IMG/VR virus record: IMGVR_UViG_3300022903_000002
Span: 1-64,000 of that record
Length of the DNA: 64,000 nucleotides
Source: a virus
Direction: 5' to 3' (one strand)
The position numbers and the translations under genes are program-made. Numbering within the stretch: position 1 is the stretch's first letter; every line of letters begins with the position of its first letter. This document shows positions 23,716 through 43,998 of this stretch, in pieces. The notes beneath the pieces were generated by a model. That model was not told the origin of the DNA. It saw only the letters and a list, made by a program, of their open reading frames with translations, and ran no database searches.

Positions 23716-24543
23716 ATGGTCAAGGATAGATGGCAGGCGAACCGGAATCCGTTCACCCCCAAGGAGGTTAAGGGGAAAGGTTCTGGGCTCCGTCCCAGCG
23801 TGGCTCGTTTGGTCGAGAAGCTGGACCCGGAGAGTGAGTCCTTCGCGCGGAGCACGGCGATCCTCGCAGATATGGCCGCAGCCGGAGTTGAGATCAACGA
23901 GGCCGCCGTAGACATCGCCATCAAGCTCGCGGTCCAGAACCGGGCTCGCGACTCCGGAGTCATAGCGGCGAGTCGCGAACTGGAGTCACGCCCACTTCGC
24001 CTCTGGGGAGAGCAGGACGATCGAGAGTCGATCGTCTACTACATCCGGCGCGGCGACCTCATCAAGATCGGAACGACCACGAACCCCAAGCGGAGATTCG
24101 AGGCTCTGGTTCCCGATGAGATTCTGGCTTGGGAGCCGGGAGGGACAACCGAAGAGGCTTTGCGTCACCGCCAGTTCCGTAGGCTCAAGCAGGGCATAGG
24201 CGAGTACTTCCGAGGAGAACCAGATCTGCTCCGGCACTGCCGGAAGCTCCGAGCGCTTCATGGTGACCCGGATCCGCAGTGGGCCACGACGGCGACCGTA
24301 GGGCTGGGGACCCCTGGCCGAGCACCGCTTCCAAGCGAACTGCCCCTGCCGGAATCAACGATCCTTGTCACTGCTGCCGAAGCGGCGGACCGCCTCAACA
24401 TCAAGCCAGCGACCGTCCGGGGCTGGATAGCCCGAAAGAGACTGCTCCCTGTAGCAAGAGATGAGGAGAGGCGAATGCTCTTCTACCTCGACCATGTTCG
24501 TTTCCTGAAGGGTCATAGCAGGGCGTACCGCGACGTTGCGTGA
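23716..24543 (+). CDS. GIY-YIG (T5orf172/MUG113-like) domain protein with C-terminal HTH
   Basis: 'VYYIRRGDLIKIGTT.N...R', 'EPGG...E..RHRQF', 'EAA.RL.IKPATVRGW'. Confidence 0.8.
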   Translation: MVKDRWQANRNPFTPKEVKGKGSGLRPSVARLVEKLDPESESFARSTAILADMAAAGVEINEAAVDIAIKLAVQNRARDSGVIAASRELESRPLRLWGEQDDRESIVYYIRRGDLIKIGTTTNPKRRFEALVPDEILAWEPGGTTEEALRHRQFRRLKQGIGEYFRGEPDLLRHCRKLRALHGDPDPQWATTATVGLGTPGRAPLPSELPLPESTILVTAAEAADRLNIKPATVRGWIARKRLLPVARDEERRMLFYLDHVRFLKGHSRAYRDVA

Positions 24544-24615
24544 TAACGGGCGTGTCCGAGTTGCGGAATGTGCCCTTGACCTGCTCCAATAGCAGAAGTC
24601 CACGGACACAGGTAT

Positions 24616-24647
24616 GCCCCGACGAGGTCACCTCGTTCGGGGCTTTT
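24616..24647 (+). terminator. Intrinsic terminator-like hairpin
   Basis: GCCCCGACGAGG-TCA-CCTCGTTCGGGGC followed by TTTT. Confidence 0.55.
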
Positions 24648-24669
24648 CGCACGTCAGGGGGCCTTTTAG

Positions 24670-24948
24670 GTGTCACCCGAAGACCCTCCAGTCGAGCCCG
24701 TCACCGTCTACGCGGCAGCCGAACGGCTCGGCAAGGCACCCTCCACGATTCACTGGTGGGCTATCCACTACGGCGCCCGGAAGCTCGGCAAGGTCGACCG
24801 GAAGACGTACTTCGACTACCTCGACCTCATGGTGATCGAGCGGGAGCTGTTCCATGAGCACCCGATCCCGGCGACGTGGCAGGAGCGTGCGGAGATCCGC
24901 GAACGCTGCCCCCTGAAGACCACCCAGCCTTTTCCCGCCGCTGCCTGA
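24670..24948 (+). CDS. Small HTH DNA-binding protein
   Basis: 'TVYAAAERLGKAPSTIHWWA'. Confidence 0.7.
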   Translation: MSPEDPPVEPVTVYAAAERLGKAPSTIHWWAIHYGARKLGKVDRKTYFDYLDLMVIERELFHEHPIPATWQERAEIRERCPLKTTQPFPAAA

Positions 24949-25094
24949 CCCCTGATCGCGCGCCCGTCCCACCTCGCGGAGGACGTGAGGCGCGCCCGCC
25001 GGCGACGTGCCCCCCAGAGTCCCGTCGCCTGGCGCCCCCTGTGGTTGACGGCCCGAGCCCACGTGAAGGGGAAGTCACGTCGTCGCTCGGGCCG

Positions 25095-25490
25095 TCAGCC
25101 CAGCAGGAGAACATCCGTCTTCCCGCCGCTCTTCTGTAGGGCGGCTGCGTAGCCGAGGTCCCGTAGCCGGGTTTGGATGACCCGCTCCGGCCCCCACCGT
25201 GCAGGCACCTCGACAGCCGCGGACGCCGCAGGATGGTGGCGTCTCCGGATACTCACCCCGTCGTAGACGTACAGCCCCCAGAGGGCTTGTGACGCGTCGG
25301 GGTCACGCGGCTGGTGCTGCATCCACGCCATCCAGACCTCGCCGTGGACGAACCAGCAGTGGATCGACCCAGTCCGCCACGCACCCTCATACCGGATCCA
25401 GACGAGTACGTGGCGTGCTTCGACGCGCCGCATCCCTGGTGGGCGCGGGTCCACGAGCCGGGCATCATCCACCGGCCCATCATCGAACAT
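25095..25490 (-). CDS. Hypothetical protein, likely SOS-regulated
   Basis: MFDDGPV... start lies within a LexA-type box; TACCAT -10 just upstream. Confidence 0.6.
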   Translation of the reverse strand: MFDDGPVDDARLVDPRPPGMRRVEARHVLVWIRYEGAWRTGSIHCWFVHGEVWMAWMQHQPRDPDASQALWGLYVYDGVSIRRRHHPAASAAVEVPARWGPERVIQTRLRDLGYAAALQKSGGKTDVLLLG

Positions 25491-25498
25491 GCTTTCGA
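25483..25498. promoter_or_regulatory. Actinobacterial LexA (SOS) box
   Basis: TCGAAC-ATGC-TTTCGA, one mismatch to TCGAAC-N4-GTTCGA. Confidence 0.7.
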
Positions 25499-25522
25499 CT
25501 GATGGTAGGGCGGGGGTGTCGG

Positions 25523-25732
25523 ATGGCACGTGAGACCACGTACTACTGCGAAGCCCCGGACTGCAGCATCCACGTCCGCTCCACCGCACCTGCACCCGTC
25601 TGCGGCTGGCTCCTCGTCCAGGAACCCCAGGACGACGGCACGGTCCGCGACATCGACGTTTGCGGTTGGACCTGCCTCCTGCGTCTCGCGGCCGGCATCG
25701 ACCCGGAAGAGGTCATCGAAGCCGCCCTCTGA
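25523..25732 (+). CDS. Small Cys-containing protein
   Basis: 'YYCEAPDC...CGWTCL'. Confidence 0.65.
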   Translation: MARETTYYCEAPDCSIHVRSTAPAPVCGWLLVQEPQDDGTVRDIDVCGWTCLLRLAAGIDPEEVIEAAL

Positions 25733-25735
25733 TCG

Positions 25736-25785
25736 CCCGGCCTGTCCCCTGAGAGTGGGCGGCAGGCCGGGTCAGCCCACTCTCA
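25736..25785 (+). ncRNA. Intergenic hairpin with loop-downstream pairing (pseudoknot/switch), copy 1
   Basis: Stem 25736-25746/25761-25771; loop TGAGAGTGGGC 25750-25760 complementary to GCCCACTCTCA 25775-25785. Confidence 0.6.
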
Positions 25786-25802
25786 ACCCGAAAGGCTCAG
25801 CG

Positions 25803-26150
25803 ATGAGCGAGTCACACGACGGCGCGGCGTTCACTCCTACCGATGCACTCGAGAAGCTTCACTACGTTGACGATGTCCGCACCACAGCGAAGCGCCTTGC
25901 CGCCTACCGGGACGAGTTGGTCGCTGCTGGATTCACCTCTGATCAGGCCAACGAGTTCGTCGCCACTGCCGCACCGGGGCTGATCGAGGATCTCGTTGTC
26001 GCTGCCGATGTAGAGGACGAGAACCCGCCGATCGGTGAGGTTCGCATCCACCTGCGACCCCAGATCAATGACGAGGACATCGCTCGCGTAGCGCAGGAGA
26101 TCCAGCGGCGCGCGGAGATCGGCCAGCGATTTCTCGGACGGTCACTCTGA
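25803..26150 (+). CDS. Hypothetical protein
   Basis: GAAAGG RBS. Confidence 0.65.
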   Translation: MSESHDGAAFTPTDALEKLHYVDDVRTTAKRLAAYRDELVAAGFTSDQANEFVATAAPGLIEDLVVAADVEDENPPIGEVRIHLRPQINDEDIARVAQEIQRRAEIGQRFLGRSL

Positions 26151-26518
26151 TGGCGCCCGCAGGCAACGCCGAGGTCGACTTCAAGATTGTCGTCGGCGGC
26201 GTGGACTTCGCAGGCGGACTAATCGACCTGCCGGTCACGGTCACCCAGCAGGAGAACACCGATGACGGCATGCGCCTGTCGGTTATCCCGGACTGGACAG
26301 CGTTCCGGGCGAATCTGGGTAACCAGCTTCGCCGTATTGCGTCGGAGTTGCCGTACTTCCCGGACCCGGAAGCGAAGTGTTCTGCGCACGGTGACCGGAT
26401 GTGCGGGCAGTGCGCCCAGAACCCATCAACCTGCGGAGAGCCCTACGGCCAGTGCGGGACGTGGATGTCGATCGGGATGCACTGGGACACCTGCCCGAAC
26501 CGCGTGAGGGGCTTCTGA
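26150..26518 (+). CDS. Hypothetical protein with Cys-rich C-terminus
   Basis: TGATG coupling. Confidence 0.65.
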   Translation: MAPAGNAEVDFKIVVGGVDFAGGLIDLPVTVTQQENTDDGMRLSVIPDWTAFRANLGNQLRRIASELPYFPDPEAKCSAHGDRMCGQCAQNPSTCGEPYGQCGTWMSIGMHWDTCPNRVRGF

Positions 26519-26754
26519 TGGCTGACGGCACCCCCATTGATCTGGACAAGCTCCGCAGCATTGGCGTGATCTCCCGCCGCACCCGTAACCAGGTTCGTGA
26601 AGGCCGCGACGCCAGCTCAGGCGAGCGTTTCAAGGCGGTCACGGACGAGCTCGGGAACACCGTCACCCAGCGCGGCAACGACCGGCAGGACGTCACGATC
26701 CGCGCCCCACGCGTAGCACTGAAGACAACGTCCGCTGAGGAGCCACACCAATGA
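26518..26754 (+). CDS. Hypothetical protein
   Basis: TGATG coupling; 'IDLDKLRSIGVI'. Confidence 0.65.
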   Translation: MADGTPIDLDKLRSIGVISRRTRNQVREGRDASSGERFKAVTDELGNTVTQRGNDRQDVTIRAPRVALKTTSAEEPHQ

Positions 26755-26972
26755 ACGCTGCCGAACAGGCCGCGAACCTCCGCGCCCAGGCGGACAGTCT
26801 CGAAGCTCTCGCTGATCTCGAGCAGAAGGCCGACGCTGCGACGAAGGCCTATCGCAAGACCCGGTCGGAGAAAAACAAGGTCGCGTACCGCTCGGCGGCA
26901 GAAGCGCTGCGTGCTGCCCGTGCTGATGCTCGGCCCGCCGAGACGACTGTTACGACCGGCGAGGGGGCGTAA
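26751..26972 (+). CDS. Small helical protein
   Basis: GAGGAG RBS. Confidence 0.65.
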   Translation: MNAAEQAANLRAQADSLEALADLEQKADAATKAYRKTRSEKNKVAYRSAAEALRAARADARPAETTVTTGEGA

Positions 26973-26974
26973 CC

Positions 26975-27421
26975 GTGGCCGTATCTGCGAGCGGCATGTT
27001 CGTCGCCAACCTAGTCGACATCCTCGACGCCACCCAGCTGGCCGTCGACCTGTCGCTGACTACCAACAAAGTCGCCCTGTTCACGAACTCGATTACGCCC
27101 AACTTCGACAGCGACGTGGGCTACGGCGCCGCGCCTTACAACGCCAACGAAGTGAGCGGAACCGGGTACACGGCCGGTGGTGTAGCGGTCGCTTCGCCGA
27201 CCGTCACAGGTGCGAGCGGGAACGTCACCTACGACATTGCCGACACCTCATGGTCGAGCTCCACCATCACGAACGCCCGTGCTGCGCTGATCTACGCGAA
27301 CGCGCTGACGAACAAGAACGGCATCGTGCTCGTGAACCTAGGAGCCGACTACTCAACTGTGAACGGGACGTTCAGCATCGTCTGGTCGGCGAGTGGGGTC
27401 CTGGTCCTCGACGTCGCATAA
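26975..27421 (+). CDS. Putative virion structural protein
   Basis: 'KVALFT...NEVSGTGYTAGG...D.SW.S.TIT.AR.ALIY...GTF.I.W' pattern typical of phage proteins that precede fibre genes. Confidence 0.7.
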   Translation: MAVSASGMFVANLVDILDATQLAVDLSLTTNKVALFTNSITPNFDSDVGYGAAPYNANEVSGTGYTAGGVAVASPTVTGASGNVTYDIADTSWSSSTITNARAALIYANALTNKNGIVLVNLGADYSTVNGTFSIVWSASGVLVLDVA

Positions 27422-27430
27422 GGGGTCGTC

Positions 27431-29611
27431 GTGGTCACTCTTGTCGGTGCTGATGCCGGCGGCGGCAACGTCGCCACCATCACCGACCTGACCTGGCCCG
27501 CCGTCCAAGCGAACGACGTCGCTGTCGTCGTCTGGGTCATGCAGAACACCCTCACCCCGACTATCCCGTCCGGATGGACCGTCCCCAGCGGCGGCGCCGT
27601 AGACGCGACGAACGGGGCGAGCCGCACCCGCGTCATGTGGAAGGCCTGCACCGGCTCCGAAACCGGCGCGCTTTCCCTGACGAACTCCACCAGTGCGATC
27701 AACCACCAGTCCGCGATCCTGCTCGTCTACCGCGGCGTCGACACGACAGCACCGATCGACGCACTGAACTCCCGGTCCGAGACGACCGCGGGTACGACGC
27801 ACGCGTCGCCGAGCATCACGACGGTCGCGGCGAACGCCCCGGTTCTGGCTGCGGTGATCGAACGGTCCACGTCCGGCACAAACAACTGGACTGCGCCCAG
27901 CGGCTACACCGAACGCGCTGACTCCACGACACTCGCGACTGGGTCGGGCGGCACGATCGTCGCTGGCGCTGATGACGGCCTCGCGGTTACACGTTCGGGC
28001 GGGACGACAGTCACGCCAAGCGTGTGGACGTCAGCGAACTCGTTCAGTACCGCGAACGTGGTGACGTGGACGCTGAGCTTGAAGCCGGGCGCGACGAACG
28101 CGGCCCCGACCCCGTCCGCGGTCTCAGCGGTCGCTGCGGTTCCGGCGCCGGGACCGGCCACGGGAGAGACAACCTCTCCTGCCGCTGCGGTGGCGGTTGC
28201 CGGGGTTCCGGCGCCTTCGGCGTCGACGGGTTCAGCAGCCTCGCCTTCCGCCGCCGCGGCGACAGCGGCTGTTCCCGCGCCATCTGTGCAGGCGGGCGAG
28301 ACGGCCTCCCCGCCTGTTGTGGTTACCGCCGCGGCGGTACCGGCACCATCGGCTCAGACCGGATCCGTTGCGGCACCCTCCGCTGCTACCGCTGCCACGT
28401 CGGTGCCCGCCCCGGCCTCCTCGGCAAGCGCTACCGCCGTAGCCGCTGCCGTCACAGCCGTGGCCGCTGTACCGGCCCCGGTCTCATCGGCCGGTGCCGC
28501 TGCGACTCCCGCGACGGTCTCTACGGTGGCGTCCGTCCCCGCGGCTGCCGAGGCGACGGGCAGCACCCTCACACCGACCACGGTCACCGCATCCGCAGCC
28601 GTACCATCTGCGGCATCCTCGGCGAGTTCTTCCGCGGCCCCGGCGGCAGTCTCAACAGCGGCAACGATTCCTACGGTCAGCGCGGCCACGGACGCGACAT
28701 CCGCAGCCGCCACGGTTACAGCATCGGCTACGGTTCCGCCTGTTGCGGTCGCCGCAGGAGAATCCGCGCAGCCCTCAACGGCGTCGGCTACGGCATCCGT
28801 CCCGGCGCCTGCCGCCACGACAGGGGCGACTGCAGCGGCAACCCCCGTTGTCGTCTCAACGACCATCTCCGCCCCGGCCATCTCAGCGGGGGCGACAGCC
28901 AACCCCGCACAGGTCGATGCGTCCACGACGGTTCCAGCACCGACCGTGGACACGAGCGGCAACACGACGGTCGCCCCGTCCACGGTTCGCGCCGCTATTG
29001 ATGTGCTTGTTCCGGCGACCTCGGCGAGCTCGTCTGCGACGCCGGCCACGGCCGCGGGTAGCGCCTCGACCGGTATGCCGACCGTCGCCGCGAGGACCGA
29101 AGCGGACCCGCCACCGGTCGTAACATCCACCGCTGTTCCAGGACCTTTGGCCAGCAGCGGCTCCGCGGCGCAACCGTCGGCTGTAGCCGCCACTGCCGCG
29201 ATCCCCGCGGTCGTGAGCAGCGTGGCCACTGTTGTAGCCGCAACGACAGCGACGGCAGGCTCGACGGTACCGGCGCCTACGACGCTCATCAGTGTCCGCA
29301 CCGATGCTGGTGTGGTCGCTGCACTCGCGACGGTCCCGACCGCGGCTACCTCCACGGACCACGGCACCGAGGCGACGCCGAGTGTCGTCCACGGACACGC
29401 GACCATCCCGCACCCGACAGTCAACGTCCCGGACATCCAGCCAGTCCCAGATCACCTCACCGGTACGGCTATCGTCACCGGTTACGCCGGGACCGTCCAC
29501 CTACGCCAGCTCAGCGGTTCGGCCTCCCGCCGGCCCCGCTCTGGAGCGGCTACGCCCTACGCCTACAGCGGCACGGCGACACCGGAGCTACTTGTTGGGA
29601 CAGCGAGGTGA
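27431..29611 (+). CDS. Fibre-like virion protein: beta-rich N-domain + ~20 Ala/Ser/Thr/Pro-rich 22-aa repeats
   Basis: Repeat unit e.g. TGETTSPAAAVAVAGVPAPSAS; N-domain paralogous to 58773-59828. Confidence 0.75.
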   Translation: MVTLVGADAGGGNVATITDLTWPAVQANDVAVVVWVMQNTLTPTIPSGWTVPSGGAVDATNGASRTRVMWKACTGSETGALSLTNSTSAINHQSAILLVYRGVDTTAPIDALNSRSETTAGTTHASPSITTVAANAPVLAAVIERSTSGTNNWTAPSGYTERADSTTLATGSGGTIVAGADDGLAVTRSGGTTVTPSVWTSANSFSTANVVTWTLSLKPGATNAAPTPSAVSAVAAVPAPGPATGETTSPAAAVAVAGVPAPSASTGSAASPSAAAATAAVPAPSVQAGETASPPVVVTAAAVPAPSAQTGSVAAPSAATAATSVPAPASSASATAVAAAVTAVAAVPAPVSSAGAAATPATVSTVASVPAAAEATGSTLTPTTVTASAAVPSAASSASSSAAPAAVSTAATIPTVSAATDATSAAATVTASATVPPVAVAAGESAQPSTASATASVPAPAATTGATAAATPVVVSTTISAPAISAGATANPAQVDASTTVPAPTVDTSGNTTVAPSTVRAAIDVLVPATSASSSATPATAAGSASTGMPTVAARTEADPPPVVTSTAVPGPLASSGSAAQPSAVAATAAIPAVVSSVATVVAATTATAGSTVPAPTTLISVRTDAGVVAALATVPTAATSTDHGTEATPSVVHGHATIPHPTVNVPDIQPVPDHLTGTAIVTGYAGTVHLRQLSGSASRRPRSGAATPYAYSGTATPELLVGTAR

Positions 29612-29614
29612 ACC

Positions 29615-29950
29615 GTGGCCCGCGTCACGCCCCTCACTCTCGATGAGAACAACGACGAAACCCTCGACCTGACCGTCACCGCAGACACGCTGATCGATCC
29701 GGATCAGGCCAGTTTCGAGTTGGTGATCAAGGCGTCCGCATCTGCGGATGATGCTGACGGTACGACGCTCACTGACGCGGACGGCATCACGGTCACCTCA
29801 ACGGAGCCGGCCAAGACCATCGCCCTAACCGCGGACATACCGGCGAGCGTGCTCGAGACTCCAGGCACCCGGTTCTGGCGCCTGGACGTGATTGTTTCCG
29901 GGAAGCGCGGCACCGCGATGTACGGGCCTCTCCGGATCCGGGACCTGTGA
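29615..29950 (+). CDS. Hypothetical (likely structural) protein
   Basis: GAGGTGA RBS; beta-rich acidic protein. Confidence 0.65.
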   Translation: MARVTPLTLDENNDETLDLTVTADTLIDPDQASFELVIKASASADDADGTTLTDADGITVTSTEPAKTIALTADIPASVLETPGTRFWRLDVIVSGKRGTAMYGPLRIRDL

Positions 29951-29959
29951 GGGGACTCG

Positions 29960-30643
29960 GTGACCGCTGACCTCCTGATGATCGTCCCGTCCCGTGGACG
30001 CCCACAGAACATCGCCGCCCTGTGGGAAGCGTGGGAGGCCACATCTGGTGGCGTCGCGGAACTCCTCGTCGCCGTCGATGACGACGACCCGGCCCTGACC
30101 GAGTATGAGCAGGTCTGCCGGGAGCGGCACATCGACCTCACTGTCGGCCCTCGCTTGCGGATGGTGCCGACCCTTAACCAGGTCGCGGCCCGGTGGGCGC
30201 CGCATTTCTTCGCGCTCGGATTCCTCGGGGATGATCATCGACCCCGGTCTACCGGGTTCGATCAGCGGTATCTCGAGACCCTCATCGAGCTCCGCACGGG
30301 CTTCGTCTACGGCAACGACCTGCTCGCCGGCGAACGCCTCCCAACTCAATTCGCACTTACTTCGGACATCGTCCAGGCCCTCGGCGCAATGATCGCCGCG
30401 CCGGTCCGGCATATGTTCGCCGACAATACGATCTGGGACCTCGGACACGCGATCGACCGAATCCGTTACCTGCCCGACGTGATTGTGGAGCACCTGCATC
30501 CGATCGCGCAGAAGGCGGACATGGATGCGGGCTACGAAGAGGTGAACGACCCGGACGCGTTCGAAGCCGACCGCCTCATCTACGCGGACTGGTACGCGAA
30601 CCAGATGCCCGCGGACGTCGCCAAGCTGAAGACGCTCCTGTGA
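29960..30643 (+). CDS. Glycosyltransferase, GT-A fold (GT2-like)
   Basis: 'IVPSRGRP', 'VDDDD', 'GDDH', 'H.FAD', 'EHLHP'. Confidence 0.75.
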   Translation: MTADLLMIVPSRGRPQNIAALWEAWEATSGGVAELLVAVDDDDPALTEYEQVCRERHIDLTVGPRLRMVPTLNQVAARWAPHFFALGFLGDDHRPRSTGFDQRYLETLIELRTGFVYGNDLLAGERLPTQFALTSDIVQALGAMIAAPVRHMFADNTIWDLGHAIDRIRYLPDVIVEHLHPIAQKADMDAGYEEVNDPDAFEADRLIYADWYANQMPADVAKLKTLL

Positions 30644-31542
30644 GCCGCGCACTCGTATCCGGCGGCGCGGGATTCATCGGCCGACACCTCGTCCGCGCGC
30701 TCACCGACGCAGGCTGGGACGTCACAGCGTTCGACATCTACCCGCGCAAGATCCCGAAGGTTCGTTTCAGGGACGCACGGGCGTTCTTCTCCTCGGACGC
30801 CACGACCTACGATCTCGTGGTGCATGCTGCGGCGGTGGAGCCTCACCGGTCCGCGATCGACAATTCGCCGCTGACGGTCGGTGCCGGGAACCTCGAACTC
30901 GACGCTGGCCTGTTCCAGTGGGCGGCCCGAACCAAGCCCGGCCGCGTGGTGTACCTGTCGAGCTCCGCCGCATATCCGATCTGGCTGCAGGATGGCATCC
31001 ATCCCTACCGGCTTGTCGAGAAAGACGCGAGGAAAGCGCATCAGCCGGACGCGATGTATGGCGAACTCAAGGCGATGGGGGAGCGGCTCGCATCCGCGTA
31101 CCGGCAGCAGGGCGGCATGGTGACGGTCGTAAGGCCGTTCTCTGGCTACGGCGAGGACCAGTCTGAGGACTTCCCGTTCGGCGCGTTCACCGCCCGCGCT
31201 CGCCGCCGTGACGACCCGTTCGAGGTATGGGGCGACGGAACACAGGTCCGCGACTGGATCCACGTCTCGGATGTGGTGGGTGCGATCCTCGCGGCCTACG
31301 AGCACGGCGTTGACGGCCCCGTGAACTTGGCGACCGGACGGCCCACGTCCTTCAACGAGTTGGCTCTCATGTTCGCCGCGGAGGCGGGCTACGCGCCGCA
31401 GATCAAGCACGTCCTGGACGCTCCGCGCGGTGTCGCGTACAGGGTCGGAGACCCGACACTCCTGCGGACGTTCTACGAGTGCAAGGTGACGATTGAAGAG
31501 GGCATCAGGCGGGCGCTGCCTAGCGGCGCTTGTTGTTCCTGA
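30640..31542 (+). CDS. NAD-dependent NDP-sugar epimerase/dehydratase
   Basis: GGAGFIG Rossmann motif, 'SSSAAY', YxxxK (YGELK), 'GDGTQVRDWIHV.D'. Confidence 0.93.
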   Translation: MSRALVSGGAGFIGRHLVRALTDAGWDVTAFDIYPRKIPKVRFRDARAFFSSDATTYDLVVHAAAVEPHRSAIDNSPLTVGAGNLELDAGLFQWAARTKPGRVVYLSSSAAYPIWLQDGIHPYRLVEKDARKAHQPDAMYGELKAMGERLASAYRQQGGMVTVVRPFSGYGEDQSEDFPFGAFTARARRRDDPFEVWGDGTQVRDWIHVSDVVGAILAAYEHGVDGPVNLATGRPTSFNELALMFAAEAGYAPQIKHVLDAPRGVAYRVGDPTLLRTFYECKVTIEEGIRRALPSGACCS

Positions 31543-31627
31543 TCACCACGAACAAACTCCCCGCAGTGCTGCCGATAGTCGCAAGGATGAGCAACTCGGC
31601 TAGGTAGAGGAGCAGGTGTACGTTCAC
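31520..31627 (-). CDS. 35-aa single-TM peptide (not in ORF track)
   Basis: VNVHLLLYLAELLILATIGSTAGSLFVVIRNNKRR*; GACGAT-N6-GTG leaderless arrangement. Confidence 0.55.
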   Translation of the reverse strand: MNVHLLLYLAELLILATIGSTAGSLFVVIRNNKRR

Positions 31628-31684
31628 CTGGCCATCGTCCCACGGAGCAGGGCATTCGCCGGTCGCTCATGGGACAATAGAAAC

Positions 31685-31882
31685 GTGACCAGAGAGCCGA
31701 ATATGGATTGGGCCGCCCGAGTAGACGGTGAGATCATCCTCCAGATCACAGGGCCCGACGCCGAGGCAATGGTCCGCGCGGTCGCCGCCGAGCGCGGCGG
31801 TGTTGTGGCCTATCGGATAGACGAGCCGCCGAACGAGGACATCCCGTACACCCACTTTGGCCCCTGGATAGACGTCGAATGA
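31685..31882 (+). CDS. Small hypothetical protein (leaderless)
   Basis: GACAAT-N6-GTG start. Confidence 0.55.
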   Translation: MTREPNMDWAARVDGEIILQITGPDAEAMVRAVAAERGGVVAYRIDEPPNEDIPYTHFGPWIDVE

Positions 31883-31903
31883 CCTGACGGATCGGAGCGT
31901 GTC

Positions 31904-32140
31904 GTGTCCGCACCGAACGAACAGCCCATCTACCGGCGCCTCCGACCCCCGTCCGGAACGGCAGTGTGCGTGTCCACCCGAGACGACCGCATCACCATCG
32001 CCGTCGGCGCACGACAACGCGTCAACTGCGACCGCGAAGACGCATACGCCGTGTGGCGGGCACTGACGACGACCCTGTTCGCTGACGGCGGCACGGCCCC
32101 GAAGTGGGCGATGCGTCTACCAGAAGCCAGCAGCCGGTGA
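31904..32140 (+). CDS. Small hypothetical protein
   Basis: GGAG RBS; GTGA overlap with next gene. Confidence 0.55.
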   Translation: MSAPNEQPIYRRLRPPSGTAVCVSTRDDRITIAVGARQRVNCDREDAYAVWRALTTTLFADGGTAPKWAMRLPEASSR

Positions 32141-32811
32141 CCATCCCGCTGATCGTGTTGACGAACGGCCGCCGCGACTGCATCTCCCAGACGATCCCCA
32201 GCATCACCAAGCACCTGACCGGCTACGGCGACATGGTCATCGTGGACGACTCCGGGGACAAGGACTATCGGGCGTGGCTTGCCGTCGAGTTCCCGGACGC
32301 TCTCGTCACTGCCGTAGCCTCGGAGGCCGCCGGGTACTGGCGGGCGATGCGGACCGTCTGGGCGATCGCCCGAGGCTCCGGAGCCGACACGGTAGTGATG
32401 TGGGAAGACGACTTCGTTCTCCTCGACGACATCGACGTAGCGTGCCTCGACCGCGTCCTCGACGAGCACCCATACCTGACACAGATCGCTCTGCGCCGGC
32501 AGCCGTGGTTCGCCAACGAGATCGCGCACGGCGGGACGCTGGAAGCCCTGGAAGTGCAGGGCCAGACGTTCGCCGAGACCAGCGACGGCAGACACCATTG
32601 GATCGAGCACCGCGCCTGCTTCACCGGCAACCCGTGCTTCATCCGGCGCAGGACATTCGAGCGCGACTGGCCCGAGGGCGCATGGTCGGAGTCCCGCTTC
32701 GGCCGGCTCCTCTTCGCCGACCCTGACGCCCGTGGCGCGTACTGGGGACGTCGCAGCGACCCGCCCCACGTGGAGCACATCGGACACGAGCGGGTCGGGA
32801 CGGAGTATTAG
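32137..32811 (+). CDS. Glycosyltransferase, GT-A fold
   Basis: 'IVDDSG', 'WEDDF', 'FTGNP', 'V.HIG'. Confidence 0.75.
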   Translation: MTIPLIVLTNGRRDCISQTIPSITKHLTGYGDMVIVDDSGDKDYRAWLAVEFPDALVTAVASEAAGYWRAMRTVWAIARGSGADTVVMWEDDFVLLDDIDVACLDRVLDEHPYLTQIALRRQPWFANEIAHGGTLEALEVQGQTFAETSDGRHHWIEHRACFTGNPCFIRRRTFERDWPEGAWSESRFGRLLFADPDARGAYWGRRSDPPHVEHIGHERVGTEY

Positions 32812-32813
32812 TA

Positions 32814-33041
32814 ATGGACAGCCTCGAAGCTCTTCAGCGGGCAGTGCTCGACGCGGAGCGCATCTACGGCATAATCCGCGACGATCTCCAGCGTCAGCTT
32901 GACGCGGATGGCCATCAGCACCTGACGCCAGAACAGATGCGCGATCCGAACGGCCGATTCATCCTCCTGGACGCGCTCACCGCGATCGTCAATGCGCGGG
33001 CCACTCAGCTATGGGCCACACAGTCACTCGACCGCTCTTAA
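32814..33041 (+). CDS. Small hypothetical protein
   Basis: ORF after GGAG RBS. Confidence 0.55.
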   Translation: MDSLEALQRAVLDAERIYGIIRDDLQRQLDADGHQHLTPEQMRDPNGRFILLDALTAIVNARATQLWATQSLDRS

Positions 33042-33066
33042 AACATCTTCTGAGGTGGCTGCCGCC

Positions 33067-33630
33067 ATGGCTTTGAACGACCACGCCTCCACACTCCGCC
33101 AGGCAGCACTCGACGCCTCACAGCGCCTCCACGCCCAGATCGAAGGCGAGTTCGCTCTCCGCCCCGGCGTCGACCGCAACGAGACCACCCTCGACGCCGA
33201 ATTCGACATCCGCTCCACCGCCGAGACCTTCTACGCCTGGCTGAACGGCACCACCCACCTCAGCCTCGAACGCGGCCCAGTCACGAAGCAGACCCCCGGC
33301 AGCCCCGCCGGTACAACCCTGAACGAGGAGAGCACTGTGCAGATCCATGACGACGAGCAGTTCACCCTGTCCGTCCACACCACCGACGCCAAGGGCTTCG
33401 AAACCAGCGACCAGATCGACTGGGCCGTCGACAACACCGACGCCGTCACCCTCCAGGTCTCCGACGACGGCCGCTCCTGCACCGTCGTAGCTGGCCAGCC
33501 CGGCTCGGCCGTGATCACGGTGACGGACTCCGCCACCGACCCGGTCCTGTCCGCGACCGAAGCCGTCGACGTGGTCGCGGGCGGTACGGCGACGATCACC
33601 CTGACCGAGGGCGACGTCACCAAGCAGTAG
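33067..33630 (+). CDS. Protein with C-terminal Ig-like (Big_2-type) domain; possible internal start at 33337
   Basis: 'IDWAVDN.DAVTL.VSDDG.S.TV.A..PGSAVITVT'; internal GAGGAG-N6-GTG. Confidence 0.65.
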   Translation: MALNDHASTLRQAALDASQRLHAQIEGEFALRPGVDRNETTLDAEFDIRSTAETFYAWLNGTTHLSLERGPVTKQTPGSPAGTTLNEESTVQIHDDEQFTLSVHTTDAKGFETSDQIDWAVDNTDAVTLQVSDDGRSCTVVAGQPGSAVITVTDSATDPVLSATEAVDVVAGGTATITLTEGDVTKQ

Positions 33631-33640
33631 GTCTCAAGCT

Positions 33641-33708
33641 CCCGGCCTGCCTCGTACTTTCTGGAAGTGGGGCGTGCGTGCGCAGGTCGGGTCAAAGCCC
33701 CACTTCCA
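33641..33708 (+). ncRNA. Intergenic hairpin with loop-downstream pairing (pseudoknot/switch), copy 2
   Basis: Stem 33641-33650/33682-33691; loop TGGAAGTGGGGC 33662-33673 complementary to GCCCCACTTCCA 33697-33708. Confidence 0.6.
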
Positions 33709-33723
33709 ACTCAAGGATCGCTC

Positions 33724-34005
33724 ATGCAGAGCAAGCTTCCTGATCGCGACACTCGCGAATACGAGTGGTGGCTCGCAGGCGCTACCGCCGAGGTTGAGGC
33801 ACGCAAGGAAGGCCGCAGCAAACCCGGACTTCAGGTGCGCAGCTTCGTTGATGGGCTCGCCGAACACTATGGCGAGCTTGACGAGGCGCAGATCGCCGCA
33901 TTTGTGTTCAAGGTCTACACGGCTGGCCTGCCGCTGCGGATTCGGATCCGTCTTGCCCTGAAGGGCCCCACGTTCTCACCGCGCGGTAAGGGCAGTAATG
34001 GGTGA
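33724..34005 (+). CDS. Hypothetical protein
   Basis: AAGGA RBS; MQSKLPDR... Confidence 0.55.
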   Translation: MQSKLPDRDTREYEWWLAGATAEVEARKEGRSKPGLQVRSFVDGLAEHYGELDEAQIAAFVFKVYTAGLPLRIRIRLALKGPTFSPRGKGSNG

Positions 34006-34216
34006 GCCCCGCCGCTTCTACCTCCAGCGCGATACCGACGTAACCGGCGCGAGCGGTGTCGGCCGTGTCGCTGACGGCATTCTCTGGCCCGACGGCACCG
34101 CAACCGTCCACTGGCGAGGTGAGGACAACAGCGAAGTGTCCTGGCCGACCGGAATCGCAGGCATCGAACGCCGCTCCGGCCACGGCGGTGCGACCCGCAT
34201 CGTCTGGATCGACTGA
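33998..34216 (+). CDS. Conserved small phage protein
   Basis: 'F.L.R..DVTG.SG.G.VA.G..WPDG......GHGG.TRIVW'. Confidence 0.75.
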   Translation: MGEPRRFYLQRDTDVTGASGVGRVADGILWPDGTATVHWRGEDNSEVSWPTGIAGIERRSGHGGATRIVWID

Positions 34217-34233
34217 CAGGGGAAGGCCAGGTC

Positions 34234-34458
34234 ATGCCAGCCCACCAGAAGGCATACCGCCGCATCTTCGACATGGTCGCCCAGGCGAAATCCAGTAGAG
34301 ACCAAGACCGCTGGCTGGATGAGGCTCTGGACCTCCGGCAGCGGGCAACAGACTGGGACGCCGACCAATGGGGTTTCAACCCCGACCTGTGGATGGAAGC
34401 CGAGCGCGCCGAACTCGCGAGCCGCGGCGGCAACGACTGGCCCCAGGAACGCGCGTGA
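34234..34458 (+). CDS. Small hypothetical protein
   Basis: RBS; GTGA overlap with next gene. Confidence 0.6.
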   Translation: MPAHQKAYRRIFDMVAQAKSSRDQDRWLDEALDLRQRATDWDADQWGFNPDLWMEAERAELASRGGNDWPQERA

Positions 34459-35171
34459 GGGTCCTTGTAGCCATTCCGTGGAGACCGCAGCCTGACCGCA
34501 TCTACGCCCACGATCTGACCGTCCAGCGCTACAGGGAGCTTCTCCCCGACGCCGACATCGTGGACGTCGACACTGACCATGACCCGTTCAGCCTCGCCGC
34601 CTGCCGCAACAAGGGCGTCCGCCTCGCCGAAGGGGACGGCCACGACGTGGTCGTACTCGGCGACGCAGACACACTCGCGGAGCAGGAGCCTCTCCTCGCC
34701 GCCATCGACAGCGCGCGCAGCAGCGGCAAGGTACACCTGCCGTACACCTTCTACAGGTCCCTCGGCTTCTACGGCACCAACCAACTACTCAACGGCTTCC
34801 CGATCGAGACCTGCGACAACGTGACCATCCCCACGGCCACGAGCGGCGTCTATGTCGCCACCCCCGCGATCTGGTGGGCATGCGGCGGCCAGGACGAACG
34901 CATGCTCGGCTGGGGCATGGAAGATGTCGCGTGGCTCGTCGCCCACCGGGCGCTACTCGGCGGTGAACCTGTCCGGCATGACGGCAGCGTCTACGCACTT
35001 CACCACGAGTCCGCAGCCAAGCAAGGCGACCAGTACGAGCGGAACGTCGCGCTCTACCACCGCTACATCGAAGCTGGCGACTCCGGAAACCCCGACGCTG
35101 TACGCGCGGTCGTCGCCGAACATGCCGACGCTGTGACCTGCGGCAAGTCAACATCGTCCACCGGCGGGTAA
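34455..35171 (+). CDS. Glycosyltransferase, GT-A fold (GT7/GT2 C-terminal GWG.ED motif)
   Basis: 'IPWR', 'RN.GV', 'DADT', 'GG.DERMLGWGMED', 'LHH'. Confidence 0.82.
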   Translation: MRVLVAIPWRPQPDRIYAHDLTVQRYRELLPDADIVDVDTDHDPFSLAACRNKGVRLAEGDGHDVVVLGDADTLAEQEPLLAAIDSARSSGKVHLPYTFYRSLGFYGTNQLLNGFPIETCDNVTIPTATSGVYVATPAIWWACGGQDERMLGWGMEDVAWLVAHRALLGGEPVRHDGSVYALHHESAAKQGDQYERNVALYHRYIEAGDSGNPDAVRAVVAEHADAVTCGKSTSSTGG

Positions 35172-35178
35172 GCAGCTC

Positions 35179-35808
35179 CTACTGCCCGACCGCACTGATG
35201 CGCACCTGGGAACTCTTAGGCCCGTAGTCGACCCGGTACAACGGACTCCCTGCACTGTCGGTCACCTCAAGCGCACCCGGCCCGCCAGGGATGTTGTACA
35301 TCCACACGCCGGACACATACCTACCAGGCGACGGAGCCGGCTGTTCGATACCCGCCCACTCCTGACCCAGGCCATGACACGTACCTATCGTCCCCGGAGT
35401 CGTATCCGCCTGCCGCCCATCAAGCCCGAACCACTGCGACCCCGTCTGCGCATCAGTATCGTCACTGGAGTATTTGACCGTCCCGACGTTCCGCAACTTG
35501 AAGCTGACACACAGCGTCACAGTGCCCTTCGGATCCGAAGATGCCCGCGGCCGGGTCTTGAGCCCCGTCACGGTGATCTCCAAGTTCGCTGCACCTTCCG
35601 CTGTCGGCATCTGGTACTTGAACGGCCGCCCTACCTGGACCGCCGGCACGGGGATGTCGCTGGTCTTCGCGGTCGGCATGCACTCAGGGACCGCCTCATC
35701 GCACGGCTTGCCCGACTGAGCCCGCTTACCTGAAGCCTTGTGTTCCGCTCCGCCGCAGCCCGCAAGTGACAGGGCAAGCGCAGCGGTTACGAGGAGTGTC
35801 GTTTTCAT
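35179..35808 (-). CDS. Putative lipoprotein (moron)
   Basis: MKTTLLVTAALALSLAG-C lipobox; beta-sandwich-like body; opposite strand. Confidence 0.7.
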   Translation of the reverse strand: MKTTLLVTAALALSLAGCGGAEHKASGKRAQSGKPCDEAVPECMPTAKTSDIPVPAVQVGRPFKYQMPTAEGAANLEITVTGLKTRPRASSDPKGTVTLCVSFKLRNVGTVKYSSDDTDAQTGSQWFGLDGRQADTTPGTIGTCHGLGQEWAGIEQPAPSPGRYVSGVWMYNIPGGPGALEVTDSAGSPLYRVDYGPKSSQVRISAVGQ

Positions 35809-35981: not shown

Positions 35982-36800
35982 ATGACAGAGGCTACCCCCA
36001 AGTACTGTGCCGCCTGCGGAACGCCGTTTGCAGATGAGTCGCCGACAGGTAACAGGCGGTTCTGTTGTCGCAGGTGCTGGCGTCGGGCCAAGGAGCGGAG
36101 ATCGCGGGGCGTCTCAGAGCGAGATGTAGCTACGGTTTCGGATTGCGTGGCATGCGGAGCATCCCTCGCCGGGCGTCCGCACGGGACCAGACACTGCTCG
36201 AACGCCTGTTACCAGCGGGCGAGGAGACGCGAGAGGCTTGGCCAGCCGATAGCTGACCGAGCTGAGGAGATCGCCTGTCGGCGCTGCGGAGACCTGGTAT
36301 ATCGCCAGCACTGGTCCTTCACGCTGTACTGCTCCAAACGGTGTCGCGAGGCATACAACGCGTACCGCTACTTCAAGATGAGACGCCCCGAGATCGAACG
36401 AGCGTGCTTGGCGTGCGGTGCACCGATCTCCCCAGACGACACGCTCAGCAAGAAGTACTGCGATAGGCGATGCGCGGGACGCAATCGGTCGCCAGACGTC
36501 ATCTTCAGGTACGTGAATGCACGTCGCGCCTTGCTCTCCGGAGCCACAGCGCGTCGCGTCCCAAAGCGGGTACTGAGGCGTCTACGGTCAGCGATCTGCT
36601 TCTACTGCGGGAGCAAAGCCAACACTGTGGATCATGTGGTGCCTCTATCTCGTGGAGGCCAGCACGCAGAGGGCAACCTCGTACCTGCGTGCCGATCGTG
36701 CAACAGCAGCAAGGCCGACAAACTGTTGATCGAGTGGAGGTTGTGGCGCCGTGGTCGAGAACTCGCCGAACGACGTTCAGAAAGTTCAGCGGCTGCGTGA
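35982..36800 (+). CDS. HNH endonuclease with four N-terminal Cys4 Zn-finger repeats
   Basis: Repeated CxxCG...(F/H/Y)Cxx.C; 'CFYCG....TVDHVVPLSRGG.H..GNLVPAC..CN.SK'. Confidence 0.88.
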   Translation: MTEATPKYCAACGTPFADESPTGNRRFCCRRCWRRAKERRSRGVSERDVATVSDCVACGASLAGRPHGTRHCSNACYQRARRRERLGQPIADRAEEIACRRCGDLVYRQHWSFTLYCSKRCREAYNAYRYFKMRRPEIERACLACGAPISPDDTLSKKYCDRRCAGRNRSPDVIFRYVNARRALLSGATARRVPKRVLRRLRSAICFYCGSKANTVDHVVPLSRGGQHAEGNLVPACRSCNSSKADKLLIEWRLWRRGRELAERRSESSAAA

Positions 36801-37002
36801 CTGGGCAGTAAGCGGCCCGGGCCGAGCCCTCTTCAACTGGGGCACAGCTGGCGACTTCGCTAGGTGCGAGGCGTTCTATAAGGGCAAGATGCCCGAGCGG
36901 ATGATCCCTGGCTGGTGCGCCACGCTCCACAAGCTCGCTACTGGCGCAACACCCGGCCACGCTCCCGGAGAAGAAGTGGCACGCAAGACCACAGGCCACT
37001 AG
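36751..37002 (+). CDS. Conserved small phage protein
   Basis: 'WGT.GDF.RC...GWCA.LH..ATG..PG'; overlaps HNH 3' end. Confidence 0.65.
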   Translation: MVENSPNDVQKVQRLRDWAVSGPGRALFNWGTAGDFARCEAFYKGKMPERMIPGWCATLHKLATGATPGHAPGEEVARKTTGH

Positions 37003-37004
37003 CA

Positions 37005-37340
37005 ATGGCAAGACGCATCCAAGAGAACCCACGTGACCGGGTCGAGTCCGCAGGGCAGTGGCGCTCAGCACCTCGACCCGTCGACTGGCCGGCCCGGGTC
37101 GAAGCTGTACTAGCTAGGGACAGGGCCTGTCGATGGGATGGCCTCGGCGTCATGTGCGGCAGCATCGAGAGGCTTGAGGTCGACCACATCGGTGACCCTC
37201 GAGACCACAGGCTCGAGAACCTTCGAGTGTTGTGTCATCGCCATCATGCGAAGCGCACCGCGCTCCAATCGGCAGCAGCGCGACAGGCAAAGCGCATCCC
37301 GCGGACCAGGCCGAAGGAGCAGCATCCCGGCCTTCTCTGA
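37005..37340 (+). CDS. Terminase-associated HNH endonuclease
   Basis: 'VLARD..C...EVDHI...H.LENL..LC..HH..RT'; immediately upstream of TerS. Confidence 0.85.
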   Translation: MARRIQENPRDRVESAGQWRSAPRPVDWPARVEAVLARDRACRWDGLGVMCGSIERLEVDHIGDPRDHRLENLRVLCHRHHAKRTALQSAAARQAKRIPRTRPKEQHPGLL

Positions 37341-37354
37341 TCGCTGTAGTCACG

Positions 37355-37445
37355 CCCCGTGAGGGTGGGGGGAGCCCCCAAGGCCATCCATGAGCGAGCC
37401 CGCTAGCGTATTGCGCCTGCCAGTCAGTACGGGTTCAGAAGCCGT
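37355..37445. other. Putative cos/packaging region
   Basis: Non-coding gap between HNH and TerS with GGGTGGGGG...CCCCC and ...GTACGGG; inferred from position only. Confidence 0.45.
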
Positions 37446-37486
37446 GAACAGCGATTCAAATCTTGGATGACTGCGGGAGGTGGCCG

Positions 37487-37912
37487 ATGCCTGGTCCCGT
37501 TCCGAATCGTTCCGACCAGCGGCGACGCCGGAACAAGGAGCCTGGCGGGGGAGTCACCCGCTCGGCTGGCGCCGAGAAGGTCGTCGCTCCTCCTGCTGAG
37601 CCTCATTGGCATTCGCTCGCGGTCGACTGGTATGAGAGTCTCGCGAAGTCGGGTCAGAGCGCCTTCTATGAGCCCAGCGATTGGGCCACGGCACGCTATG
37701 TAGCTGAGGCGATGTCTCGGAATCTTGAGAACAGCCGGTTCTCGGCGCAGCTCTTCGCGGCCGTGATGGCTGCCTCTACGACGCTCCTGGTTACCGAGGG
37801 AGATCGCCGGCGTTTGCGGGTCGAGTTGGAGCGGGCTGCCGCTGCGGTCGATGCCGATGAGGAGGCGGCGGTCGCTGAGCTCGATGAGTGGCGTGACCGA
37901 CTCTCCGGCTAA
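37487..37912 (+). CDS. Terminase small subunit
   Basis: 'PGP.P.RS..RRR.NK', 'WY.SL..SGQ..FYE.SDW', 'TEGDRRRLRVEL'; upstream of TerL. Confidence 0.88.
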   Translation: MPGPVPNRSDQRRRRNKEPGGGVTRSAGAEKVVAPPAEPHWHSLAVDWYESLAKSGQSAFYEPSDWATARYVAEAMSRNLENSRFSAQLFAAVMAASTTLLVTEGDRRRLRVELERAAAAVDADEEAAVAELDEWRDRLSG

Positions 37913-42955: not shown

Positions 42956-43029
42956 CCCCCTGATTGATCGCAGCAACCGGACCGTTGGCACGGGCCGGGG
43001 CCGCTGCATGCCTGAAAGGAAGTCCCCCC

Positions 43030-43998
43030 GTGCCGACCTACAACTCTGGTATCACTCGGGATGGCAGCGACGACCCGCTGATCCCCGTCCCGGTCTCCAA
43101 CCAGATCATCCAGGAGATGCCGACGAGCAGCTTCATGCTGCAGCGCGCCGGCCGCGTCCAGATGTCCACGAAGTCCCAGCGTCAGCCGGTCCTGGACGTT
43201 CTGCCGATGGCCTACTGGGTCTCCGGTGACACCGGGATGAAGCAGACCTCGGCCGTGGACTGGAAAAACGTGTCGCTGGTCGCTGAGGAGCTCGCGGTCA
43301 TCGTCCCGATCCCCGAGTCGTACCTCGACGACGCGCAGGTCCCCCTGTGGGACGAGGTCCGGCCGCGGATCGTAGAGGCGTTCGGCGCGAAGATCGACGG
43401 AGCCGCGATGTTCGGTCTCGATAAGCCGTCCTCGTGGCCCGCCGCGATCTACCAGTCGGCGGTCGCCGCCGGCAACACCGTCCGGACCGGAGCGGCAGCG
43501 GACTTCGGCGTGGACGTCGCCGCGATCGGTGAGGTCGTCGCCCGCGACGGTTTCGCTGTCAACGGCTTCGCGGCCCGCCCGGGTCTGACGTGGAAGCTCG
43601 TGGCGATGCGGTCGTCGCAGGGCGTGCCGCTGTACCAGCCGAACCTGCAGGACGGCACCGGCCCCGGCCAGCTGTACGGCTACCCGGTCAGCGAGGTCAA
43701 CAACGGGTCCTGGGACTCCGACGAAGCCGAACTCATCGCCGGTGACTGGACGAAGGCGATCATCGGGATGCGGCAGGACATCACCTGGAAGATGTTCGAC
43801 CAGGGTGTCATCTCCGACGGTTCCGGTGCTGTGGTCCTGAACCTCATGCAGCAGGACTCGGTGGCGCTGCGCGTCACGATGCGCGTCGCCTACGCCACGT
43901 CGAACCCGGTCACCACCCTCAACACCACCGAGAACACCAGATTTCCCTTTGGGGTCGTACAGGCCTCGACGGCGGACAGTGTCGCGGGTTCTGCCTGA
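43030..43998 (+). CDS. Major capsid protein (HK97 fold)
   Basis: 'AYWV......K', 'EELAVIVPI', 'GDW', 'NLMQQD.VALR...R'; GAAAGGA RBS. Confidence 0.93.
   Translation: MPTYNSGITRDGSDDPLIPVPVSNQIIQEMPTSSFMLQRAGRVQMSTKSQRQPVLDVLPMAYWVSGDTGMKQTSAVDWKNVSLVAEELAVIVPIPESYLDDAQVPLWDEVRPRIVEAFGAKIDGAAMFGLDKPSSWPAAIYQSAVAAGNTVRTGAAADFGVDVAAIGEVVARDGFAVNGFAARPGLTWKLVAMRSSQGVPLYQPNLQDGTGPGQLYGYPVSEVNNGSWDSDEAELIAGDWTKAIIGMRQDITWKMFDQGVISDGSGAVVLNLMQQDSVALRVTMRVAYATSNPVTTLNTTENTRFPFGVVQASTADSVAGSA

Follow-up and report, generated by a model that had tools for sequence, protein, structure and literature searches.

What sets the proportions in which phages make several proteins from a single long message is known in only a few cases, and a pair of intergenic elements in the IMG/VR virus record IMGVR_UViG_3300022903_000002 raises the question of whether RNA structures between cistrons could do so. 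The record is 105,082 bp long (65.5% G+C), and the window analysed here is its first 64 kb; the genome is called G000 in comparisons. An earlier reading of the letters (the original prediction) described the two elements, here named E1 (25736–25785) and E2 (33641–33708), as a homologous pair in which a loop and a downstream anti-loop are perfectly complementary and change together. Direct reading bears this out, coordinates and helices included. Here we find firm support, from comparison of related sequences, for a conserved, strand-specific family of RNA structures that is absent from Rfam, attached to the ribosome-binding sites (RBSs) of unrelated genes and exchanged between phages. We further propose that E1 and E2 act as bistable, portable, cis-acting leaders operated by the ribosome, which would control initiation at the downstream cistron, a reading to which we give an even chance and in which we infer the trigger and the sign of the effect.

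Anatomy and covariation of E1 and E2

Each element contains two interleaved helices in the order a–b–a′–b′. Arms a and a′ close a very stable, GC-rich hairpin (hairpin A), the loop of which carries segment b, and b is complementary to b′, a C-rich tract that lies between the hairpin and the Shine–Dalgarno (SD) sequence of the next gene. Helix a/a′ is 9 bp long in both elements, and b/b′ is 11 bp in E1 and 12 bp in E2. The parts are as follows.

25736–25771, + strand: hairpin A of E1, in which a (CCCGGCCTG, 25736–25744) pairs with a′ (CAGGCCGGG, 25763–25771)
25750–25760, + strand: loop segment b of E1 (TGAGAGTGGGC), after a 5-nucleotide (nt) linker from a and 2 nt before a′
25775–25785, + strand: b′ of E1 (GCCCACTCTCA), complementary to b at all 11 nt and separated from a′ by 3 nt and from the SD by 5 nt
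25786–25805, + strand: conserved tail of E1 (AACCCGAAAGG), with SD AAAGG at 25791–25795 and ATG at 25803 of a gene for a protein of 115 amino acids (aa)
33641–33691, + strand: hairpin A of E2, in which a (33641–33649) pairs with a′ (CAGGTCGGG, 33683–33691), including one G·U pair that is a mismatch on the other strand
33662–33673, + strand: loop segment b of E2 (TGGAAGTGGGGC), 12 nt after a and 9 nt before a′
33697–33708, + strand: b′ of E2 (GCCCCACTTCCA), a 12-nt perfect complement of b, 5 nt after a′
33709–33726, + strand: conserved tail of E2 (AACTCAAGGA), with SD AAGGA at 33713–33717 and ATG at 33724 of a 93-aa gene

E1 and E2 are homologous, as had been proposed, and their b/b′ helices differ by two substitutions and one insertion, every one of them compensated; the genes that flank them are unrelated, as had been claimed. 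To call such structures we required interleaved helices with a summed length of at least 22 bp and a third linker of at most 6 nt. On the + strand of the whole 105-kb genome exactly three elements fit this description, namely E1, E2 and a third, E3 (47425–47483), against a mean of 0.025 per strand in dinucleotide-shuffled sequence (n = 40). The concern, raised with the original prediction, that such complementarity might be equally common in shuffled sequence is therefore not borne out.

The covariance-model search that had been suggested as a check was run on IMG/VR, where pattern scans were followed by a model (R1) built on the first six sequences. Together, scans and model gave eight further members (L003, L004, L005, L294, L295, L297 and the proviruses G001 (L009) and G002 (L013)) and hence a family of ten with covariation in both helices. 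In the alignment of all ten (A2), standard pairs occupy 98.5% of cells, compared with 30–51% when the partners are slid. Six pairs are altered on both sides, two in helix a (including C:G to U:A in L294, L295 and L297) and four in helix b, with the innermost pair among them (C:G, G:C and U:A), in an alignment that was fitted to helix b and in which several changes may be single events inherited by relatives. The + strand holds three G·U cells and zero A·C cells, which is consistent with an RNA transcribed in the gene direction. Across members a and a′ are separated by loops of 18 to 35 nt, a range that is tolerable for an RNA stem but not for a dimeric DNA site.

A scan of genome contigs with the pattern gave at least 120 matches, of which all those listed were chance or coding matches and none was a family member; 57 of those listed are the NlpC/P60 motif (FDCSGLVQWAYKQAG), which fits the pattern by accident. 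Among the matches listed from metagenome contigs most were also due to chance, and one distinct variant (L023, L025, L090 and L137) has a downstream loop complement. Rfam gave no match at gathering score in the window and, at E ≤ 1, only two chance-level matches, elsewhere in the loci.

Attachment to the downstream gene

Both elements had been described as starting shortly after a stop codon, which holds for E1 and E2 themselves:

25730–25732, + strand: TGA stop of the small gene upstream of E1 (3′ part of the open reading frame (ORF) 25199–25732), within the conserved word CTGATC and 3 nt before helix a
33628–33630, + strand: TAG stop of the 212-aa gene 32992–33630 (weak Big_2 Ig-like match), 10 nt before E2

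As a defining trait of the family it fails. A stop lies 3–13 nt before helix a in E1, E2, L003, L004 and L294, and in total five to six members have one shortly before the hairpin and four have none; a longer non-coding stretch precedes the element in G001, G002, L005 and L297, AT-richer in the last three. The word CTGATC supplies the upstream TGA in E1, L003 and L294 and is retained in L297 although non-coding DNA precedes it there.

The downstream side is constant. All ten members have an AAGG-type SD that starts 3–8 nt after the end of b′, and a start codon 14–22 nt after b′. Identity among E1, L003 and L004 is 84–87% across the element and at background in the 200 nt on either side, and the downstream proteins are unrelated, which agrees with the earlier view that the structure rather than its surroundings is conserved. 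The genes 3′ of E1 and E2 are 25803–26150 (115 aa) and 33724–34005 (93 aa). Homologues of the 115-aa gene in G002 and L295 carry the element upstream, next to upstream neighbours that differ from those of E1; a search of viral contigs for further relatives of this gene found none. Given the variable upstream side, the constant SD and start codon and the retention of the element before homologues of the 115-aa gene, we therefore read it, from these comparisons, as the leader of the downstream gene and not the tail of the upstream gene. It probably tunes expression of the gene that follows, and as a bistable leader it would act on the translation or the stability of that cistron.

A hairpin so close to a stop could instead be a 3′ element of the upstream message, with hairpin A serving as a U-less terminator or as a barrier to 3′–5′ exonucleases and b′ only modulating it. 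Hairpin A has the GC-rich stem of an intrinsic terminator, 9–14 bp long and shortly after the stop in E1, E2, L003, L004 and L294; the E3-type hairpin follows the highly expressed major tail gene, and a plain long hairpin at about 44007–44048 follows the major capsid gene. The stem lacks a U-tract, however, being followed by TCA, CCT or CCCA, and no terminator-like site was reported at E1 or E2. Moreover, four members have no upstream gene, conservation extends through b′ and the next SD, the element travels with the downstream gene, and the covariation of b with b′ is left unaccounted for. We regard this explanation as unlikely. The hairpin 3′ of the capsid gene (outer arms GGTCGGGCG and CGCCTGACC) has no downstream loop complement.

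A structure that begins 3 nt after a stop, as in E1, L003, L294 and the E3 family, might also be a recoding signal that drives read-through or frameshifting and extends the upstream protein, and in E2 and E3 the two flanking ORFs share a reading frame with no further stop between them. Yet E1 is out of frame and the frame relations are not conserved; in L168, which carries a relative of E3, reading on in frame meets a TAG after 17 codons, and the downstream gene lies in another frame. With four members that have no upstream ORF, and an SD of its own before each downstream gene, recoding seems to us barely credible. As to the ORF upstream of E1, coding signal is confined to the last 50–70 or so codons of 25199–25732 (codon-position GC; third-position GC 0.84), which read as a small Cys-rich protein, and the long N-terminal part of the annotated ORF is probably not translated.

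Two homologous, covarying and co-oriented copies in one temperate phage bring to mind processive antitermination RNAs of the put or nut kind, which modify RNA polymerase; putL and putR of HK022 are a comparable pair. Some members, moreover, follow non-coding and possibly promoter-bearing DNA. Against this stand the close, conserved association with the SD and start codon of the following gene, which is foreign to put and nut sites, and the single copy in most relatives. A scan for sigma-70-type promoters upstream of the members that follow non-coding DNA also found none, with a consensus that fits actinobacterial promoters poorly. We consider an antitermination role very improbable. In L297, the non-coding DNA before the element (517–615) contains a palindrome (AATGGTTA..TAACCATT) along with three to four copies of the repeat GTACTCC, all of which resemble operator sites.

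The family also marks places at which the genomes differ. The ~10 kb of G000 at 24948–35179 holds E1, E2 and a glycosylation cluster (small genes with glycosyltransferases and an epimerase, 29.9–35.2 kb), and the matching part of G001 has one element (36704–36773). In G001, ~1.2 kb with this element (36546–37749) stands in place of the ~10 kb, and the region is rearranged in G002 (70472–74859). The order in G002 is glycosyltransferase A, element, 115-aa gene, glycosyltransferase B, which brings together the upstream neighbour of E2 and the downstream neighbour of E1; in L005 the order is A, element, B, and in L296 the glycosyltransferase genes A and B are adjacent without an element. Conserved leaders thus coincide with points of cassette exchange. 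This is what would be expected if the element were a site in DNA, either a recombination joint between cassettes or an operator for a binding protein. The variable arm spacing, the compensatory changes, the G·U pairs on one strand and the fixed distance to the start codon nevertheless all fit RNA, and any recombination at such a leader would follow incidentally from its conservation. We read the joint position in this way, as a consequence of conservation that offers short homology for recombination and not as the function of the element, and find a DNA-level role quite improbable.

Folding states and a proposed mechanism

In all ten members the third linker is 3–5 nt long, against a helix a of 9–14 bp. 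Because a′ ends at the foot of helix a and b ends at its top, such a linker cannot span the helix, and both helices are therefore never complete together, as the original prediction had noted. Its two options, a tight H-type knot or a two-state switch beside the RBS, fare differently: on A-form dimensions a classical H-type pseudoknot with both helices complete would be sterically excluded, whereas a two-state element or a partial knot is reasonable. A simple switch that masks the RBS is not supported, the modelled accessibility of the SD showing no systematic difference between states.

Under constraints in ViennaRNA, the state with hairpin A is more stable than that with b/b′ (hairpin B) by 3.5–15 kcal/mol in all members of the E1/E2 and E3 families, so hairpin A is the predicted ground state and would be the first to form in transcription. 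It frequently extends inward, with the first linker, which is C-rich, pairing with G-rich sequence in the 3′ part of b, as in the predicted fold of E1. Since b/b′ is maintained by compensatory change, innermost pair included, the alignment implies that the second state must matter as well.

We propose that the ribosome links the two. In state 1, hairpin A would be formed and b′ single-stranded; in state 2, helix b/b′ would be complete and the lower part of helix a open. A ribosome that terminates at a stop 3–10 nt upstream would cover and melt the 5′ arm of hairpin A and release b for pairing with b′, and one stopped only 3 nt upstream would be the obvious agent to open that arm. The loop-to-leader helix beside the SD could then set downstream initiation, through re-initiation or coupling or by limiting the access of 30S subunits, which makes control of stoichiometry or coupling plausible. 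Where the element follows non-coding DNA, hairpin A may also serve as a structured 5′ end. The logic would resemble that of the ColIb-P9 and pMU720 rep leaders, in which termination at an upstream ORF is followed by pairing between the loop of a hairpin and the nucleotides directly 5′ of the SD. In support of this idea, elements of the same design and unrelated sequence precede other genes (E3 and its relatives, and G001 46690–46772).

Several points weigh against the proposal. The modelled energies mean that the hairpin B state would require an active trigger, and four members have no upstream ORF to provide a ribosome. The modelled unpaired probability of the window from −15 to +3 that contains the SD is similar in all states, with no systematic difference. 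Known activator pseudoknots are much shorter than b/b′ (8–13 bp). With ten members the family is small, and its invariance owes something to ascertainment, because the pattern that found the first six members fixed CCGGCCTG, AGTGGG and CAGGYCGG (parts of a, b and a′). Finally, no RNA runs matching 25000–34500 were listed.

The same topology could protect a message instead of starting its translation. The original prediction had already suggested a barrier to RNase J. Pairing of the loop with the 3′ tail might form a ring or tight knot that shields the downstream cistron from 5′–3′ decay by this enzyme, in the manner of the exonuclease-resistant RNAs (xrRNAs) of plant viruses, or, once hairpin A had been processed, b/b′ might itself protect the 5′ end as a hairpin. 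A stem-loop with an apical loop that pairs with the 3′ flank over short linkers is the topology of small xrRNAs, and the element lies on the 5′ side of the gene it would protect in 10 of 10 members. There is also literature on flaviviral xrRNAs that touches on bacterial RNase J (PMC5760640). There is no match to an xrRNA family of Rfam, however, even at E ≤ 1, b/b′ is far longer than the pseudoknots of xrRNAs, and we know of no bacterial or phage xrRNA. Protection from RNase J is in our judgement decidedly unlikely.

Tail-gene elements and relation to known systems

The third element of the genome lies among its virion genes, which run in the order terminase (37851), portal, scaffold, capsid (42964–43998), major tail protein (ending at 47421), chaperones and tape measure (48474–53216). 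The major tail protein is at most 39% identical to its counterparts in Gordonia, Nocardia, Rhodococcus and Arthrobacter phages, and a megablast search of the cultured-phage collection with 24000–35000 gave no match; the source is therefore an uncultured phage of an actinobacterium, without a close cultured relative. E3 and the related features are as follows.

47425–47483, + strand: E3, of the same architecture and unrelated sequence, starting 3 nt downstream of the TGA that ends the gene for the major tail protein
47425–47438 (a), 47443–47453 (b), 47454–47467 (a′) and 47473–47483 (b′), + strand: parts of E3, upstream of the GTG at 47503 that starts a small conserved gene
46692–46702, + strand: another exact occurrence of the E3 b′ word (GGCCCGCCAGC), the second, within the major tail gene leader and directly 3′ of a T-tailed terminator hairpin
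47695–47703, + strand: third copy of the E3 b′ word (GGCCCGCCA), which takes up the SD-to-start spacer of the tail assembly chaperone gene (ATG at 47704)
2174–2229 and 2656–2663 of Nocardia phage P69 (L299): the corresponding arrangement after the major tail gene
2237–2290 and 2568–2575 of Rhodococcus phage GuyFagieri (L300): the corresponding arrangement after the major tail gene

Helix a of E3 is 14 bp and helix b 11 bp long. In its relatives (G001 49702–49758, L168, L169 and L170), five pairs of helix a are changed on both sides and a 7-bp core of b/b′ is invariant. The loop of E3 is complementary to three leader words (46692–46702, 47473–47483 and 47695–47703). G000, G001, L169 and L170 retain the core of these three words, and L168 keeps sites 2 and 3 with one mismatch at site 1. 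A change in G001 from GGCCCGCC to CGCCCGCC is matched in the E3-type loop and at all three sites, and the loop fits the distal sites better than the local one in L169 and G001. This combination of loop and leader words may set the ratio of tube protein to chaperone. At the same place, the cultured phages P69 and GuyFagieri have a hairpin with the loop CTCCCCGG and the word CCGGGGAG in two places, 3′ of the hairpin and at the SD of the gene for the tail assembly chaperone; Gordonia phage Morgana has no such match of hairpin loop and word. In P69 and GuyFagieri, CCGGGGAG also occurs near 1000–1010, before the tail terminator gene.

A further interleaved element, in G001 at 46690–46772 (L159:6690–6772), has helices of 12 and 11 bp with linkers of 11, 16 and 10 nt and lies between a TGA and a GAGGAGG-GTG start; it can also be read as a CxxC-containing peptide and so may be coding. 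Together, these comparisons show that a hairpin with its loop antisense to the following leader occurs several times, in unrelated sequence, in this group of phages, a recurrence that favours a role in the expression of downstream genes. Near the tail genes we also saw a T-tailed hairpin at 46665–46690, just 5′ of the major tail gene leader (GCCGCT GACC AGCGGC followed by TCCTTTTT), which is among the few U-tract terminators seen here. In contig L171 (2160–2396), a major tail gene of 75% identity leads directly into three ~29-nt repeats (core CCCCGCGCACGCGGGGATGGTCC) with spacers, resembling clustered regularly interspaced short palindromic repeats (CRISPR); the junction could be an assembly chimera or an array beside a phage fragment.

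The three leader sites also suggest a different role, in which hairpin A is a stable decay product of the upstream message and its loop acts in trans as an antisense RNA on b′-type words in leaders. Complementarity of the E3-family loop to three sites in five genomes, the G001 change matched throughout and the better fit of the distal sites in L169 and G001 would all follow, and pairing in trans would remove the steric problem. For the loops of E1 and E2, by contrast, the local b′ is the only clear partner, with further complements of at least 9 nt in the 105-kb genome at or below a rough estimate of chance; a 12-mer at 7635–7646 and a 10-mer at 35352–35361 lie upstream of start codons, neither of them significant. 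We find action in trans improbable. Another copy of the b′ word of the G002 element (ACCCACTCCA) lies directly 5′ of the SD of the gene that follows the G002 major tail gene (reverse-strand coordinate 45441–45450), a 10-mer recurrence that is within chance and at most a lead.

Returning to the ribosome-operated leader, it is possible, if rather doubtful, that E1, E2 and E3 exemplify a general and so far undescribed design of actinophages, a stable intercistronic hairpin with a loop antisense to the following leader or leaders. The ribosome would open the hairpin, so that upstream translation sets downstream initiation; E1 and E2 would be portable copies that double as cassette joints, and E3, with its counterparts in P69 and GuyFagieri, would set the ratio of tail tube protein to assembly chaperone. 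E1 and E2 represent a compact RNA module with good comparative support for its fold, mobile between unrelated genes, and the structural analogue sits at the junction of the major tail and chaperone genes, where a large expression ratio is needed, with versions in cultured, tractable phages. If pairing of loop with leader controls initiation, the module would provide a reusable natural ‘insulator/coupler’ part for high-GC hosts and an RNA-level account of the start-associated repeats of actinophages, the role of which has been open since 2011.

Several known RNAs share parts of this arrangement. The leaders of T4 gene 32, Escherichia coli rpsO and the alpha operon form a pseudoknot, or an equilibrium of hairpin and pseudoknot, near the RBS, with two conformers in rpsO. 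These are single-copy autoregulatory sites bound by the encoded protein, whereas the E1/E2 family precedes unrelated genes and gives no indication of a binding protein. Small xrRNAs of plant viruses are stem-loops with an apical loop that pairs with the 3′ flank via short linkers in a conformationally dynamic fold; the E1/E2 family has no sequence or Rfam match to them and a much longer helix between loop and tail, and to our knowledge xrRNAs occur only in eukaryotic viruses. Sites of the put and nut kind lie downstream of promoters and act on far terminators with no fixed link to an RBS, unlike the fixed link to the start codon seen here.

For the E3 system only, one report offers a parallel in the Bacillus subtilis hbs mRNA, in which a leader word is complementary to the loop of a 3′ hairpin of the same message (PMC5737220). 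Pairing of 5′ and 3′ untranslated regions of the hbs type could, by analogy, tie stability to translation in the E3 system. Organism and sequence differ, and the comparison does not apply to E1 and E2, which have no second site.

The nearest mechanism on record is, by analogy, the activator pseudoknot in the rep leaders of I-complex plasmids. In IncIα, IncB and IncL/M plasmids (ColIb-P9 repZ, pMU720 repA), the loop of a hairpin pairs with the nucleotides directly 5′ of the rep SD, and the pseudoknot forms after the ribosome terminates a leader peptide and keeps the initiation signal open (PMC4705826; PMC8053102). The E1/E2 family is alike in having a loop complementary to bases just 5′ of the SD, with b′ ending 3–8 nt before it, and, in our proposal, in the use of termination at an upstream ORF to set translation of the next cistron. 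It differs in that its pairing is 8–13 bp long between segments 3–5 nt apart, compared with 4–8 bp over a long range (~100 nt) in the plasmids. The plasmid stop lies beside the target SD, and that of the E1/E2 family, when present, before the hairpin. The plasmid SD is buried in an inhibitory hairpin, whereas no buried SD is predicted here and the SD window is equally unpaired in all states. An antisense RNA competes for the plasmid loop; no antisense gene was seen here, and the sequences are unrelated.

Among phages, the closest phenomenon appears to be the start-associated sequences (SAS) and extended start-associated sequences (ESAS) of Cluster K mycobacteriophages (PMC3203893) and Cluster EF Microbacterium phages (PMC7302621), which are suspected of a role in translation initiation. 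Both groups are repeated, conserved, SD-containing words just before the starts of unrelated actinophage genes, and the E1/E2 family shares the inverted repeat, variable in its spacer, that directly precedes the start-associated word. There are 10–19 copies of SAS per genome, compared with one or two here, and the 13-nt SAS consensus GGGATAGGAGCCC at the RBS of many genes differs from the tail AAC(C/T)C(G)AAAGG of the E1/E2 family. Differences between ESAS arms gave no support for RNA pairing, and their authors favoured DNA-binding proteins (PMC3203893; PMC7302621); ESAS have no second interleaved helix, whereas the E1/E2 family has two helices that both covary. The E1/E2 family is thus distinct from both the rep pseudoknot and SAS/ESAS in sequence, copy number, helix lengths and short linkers.

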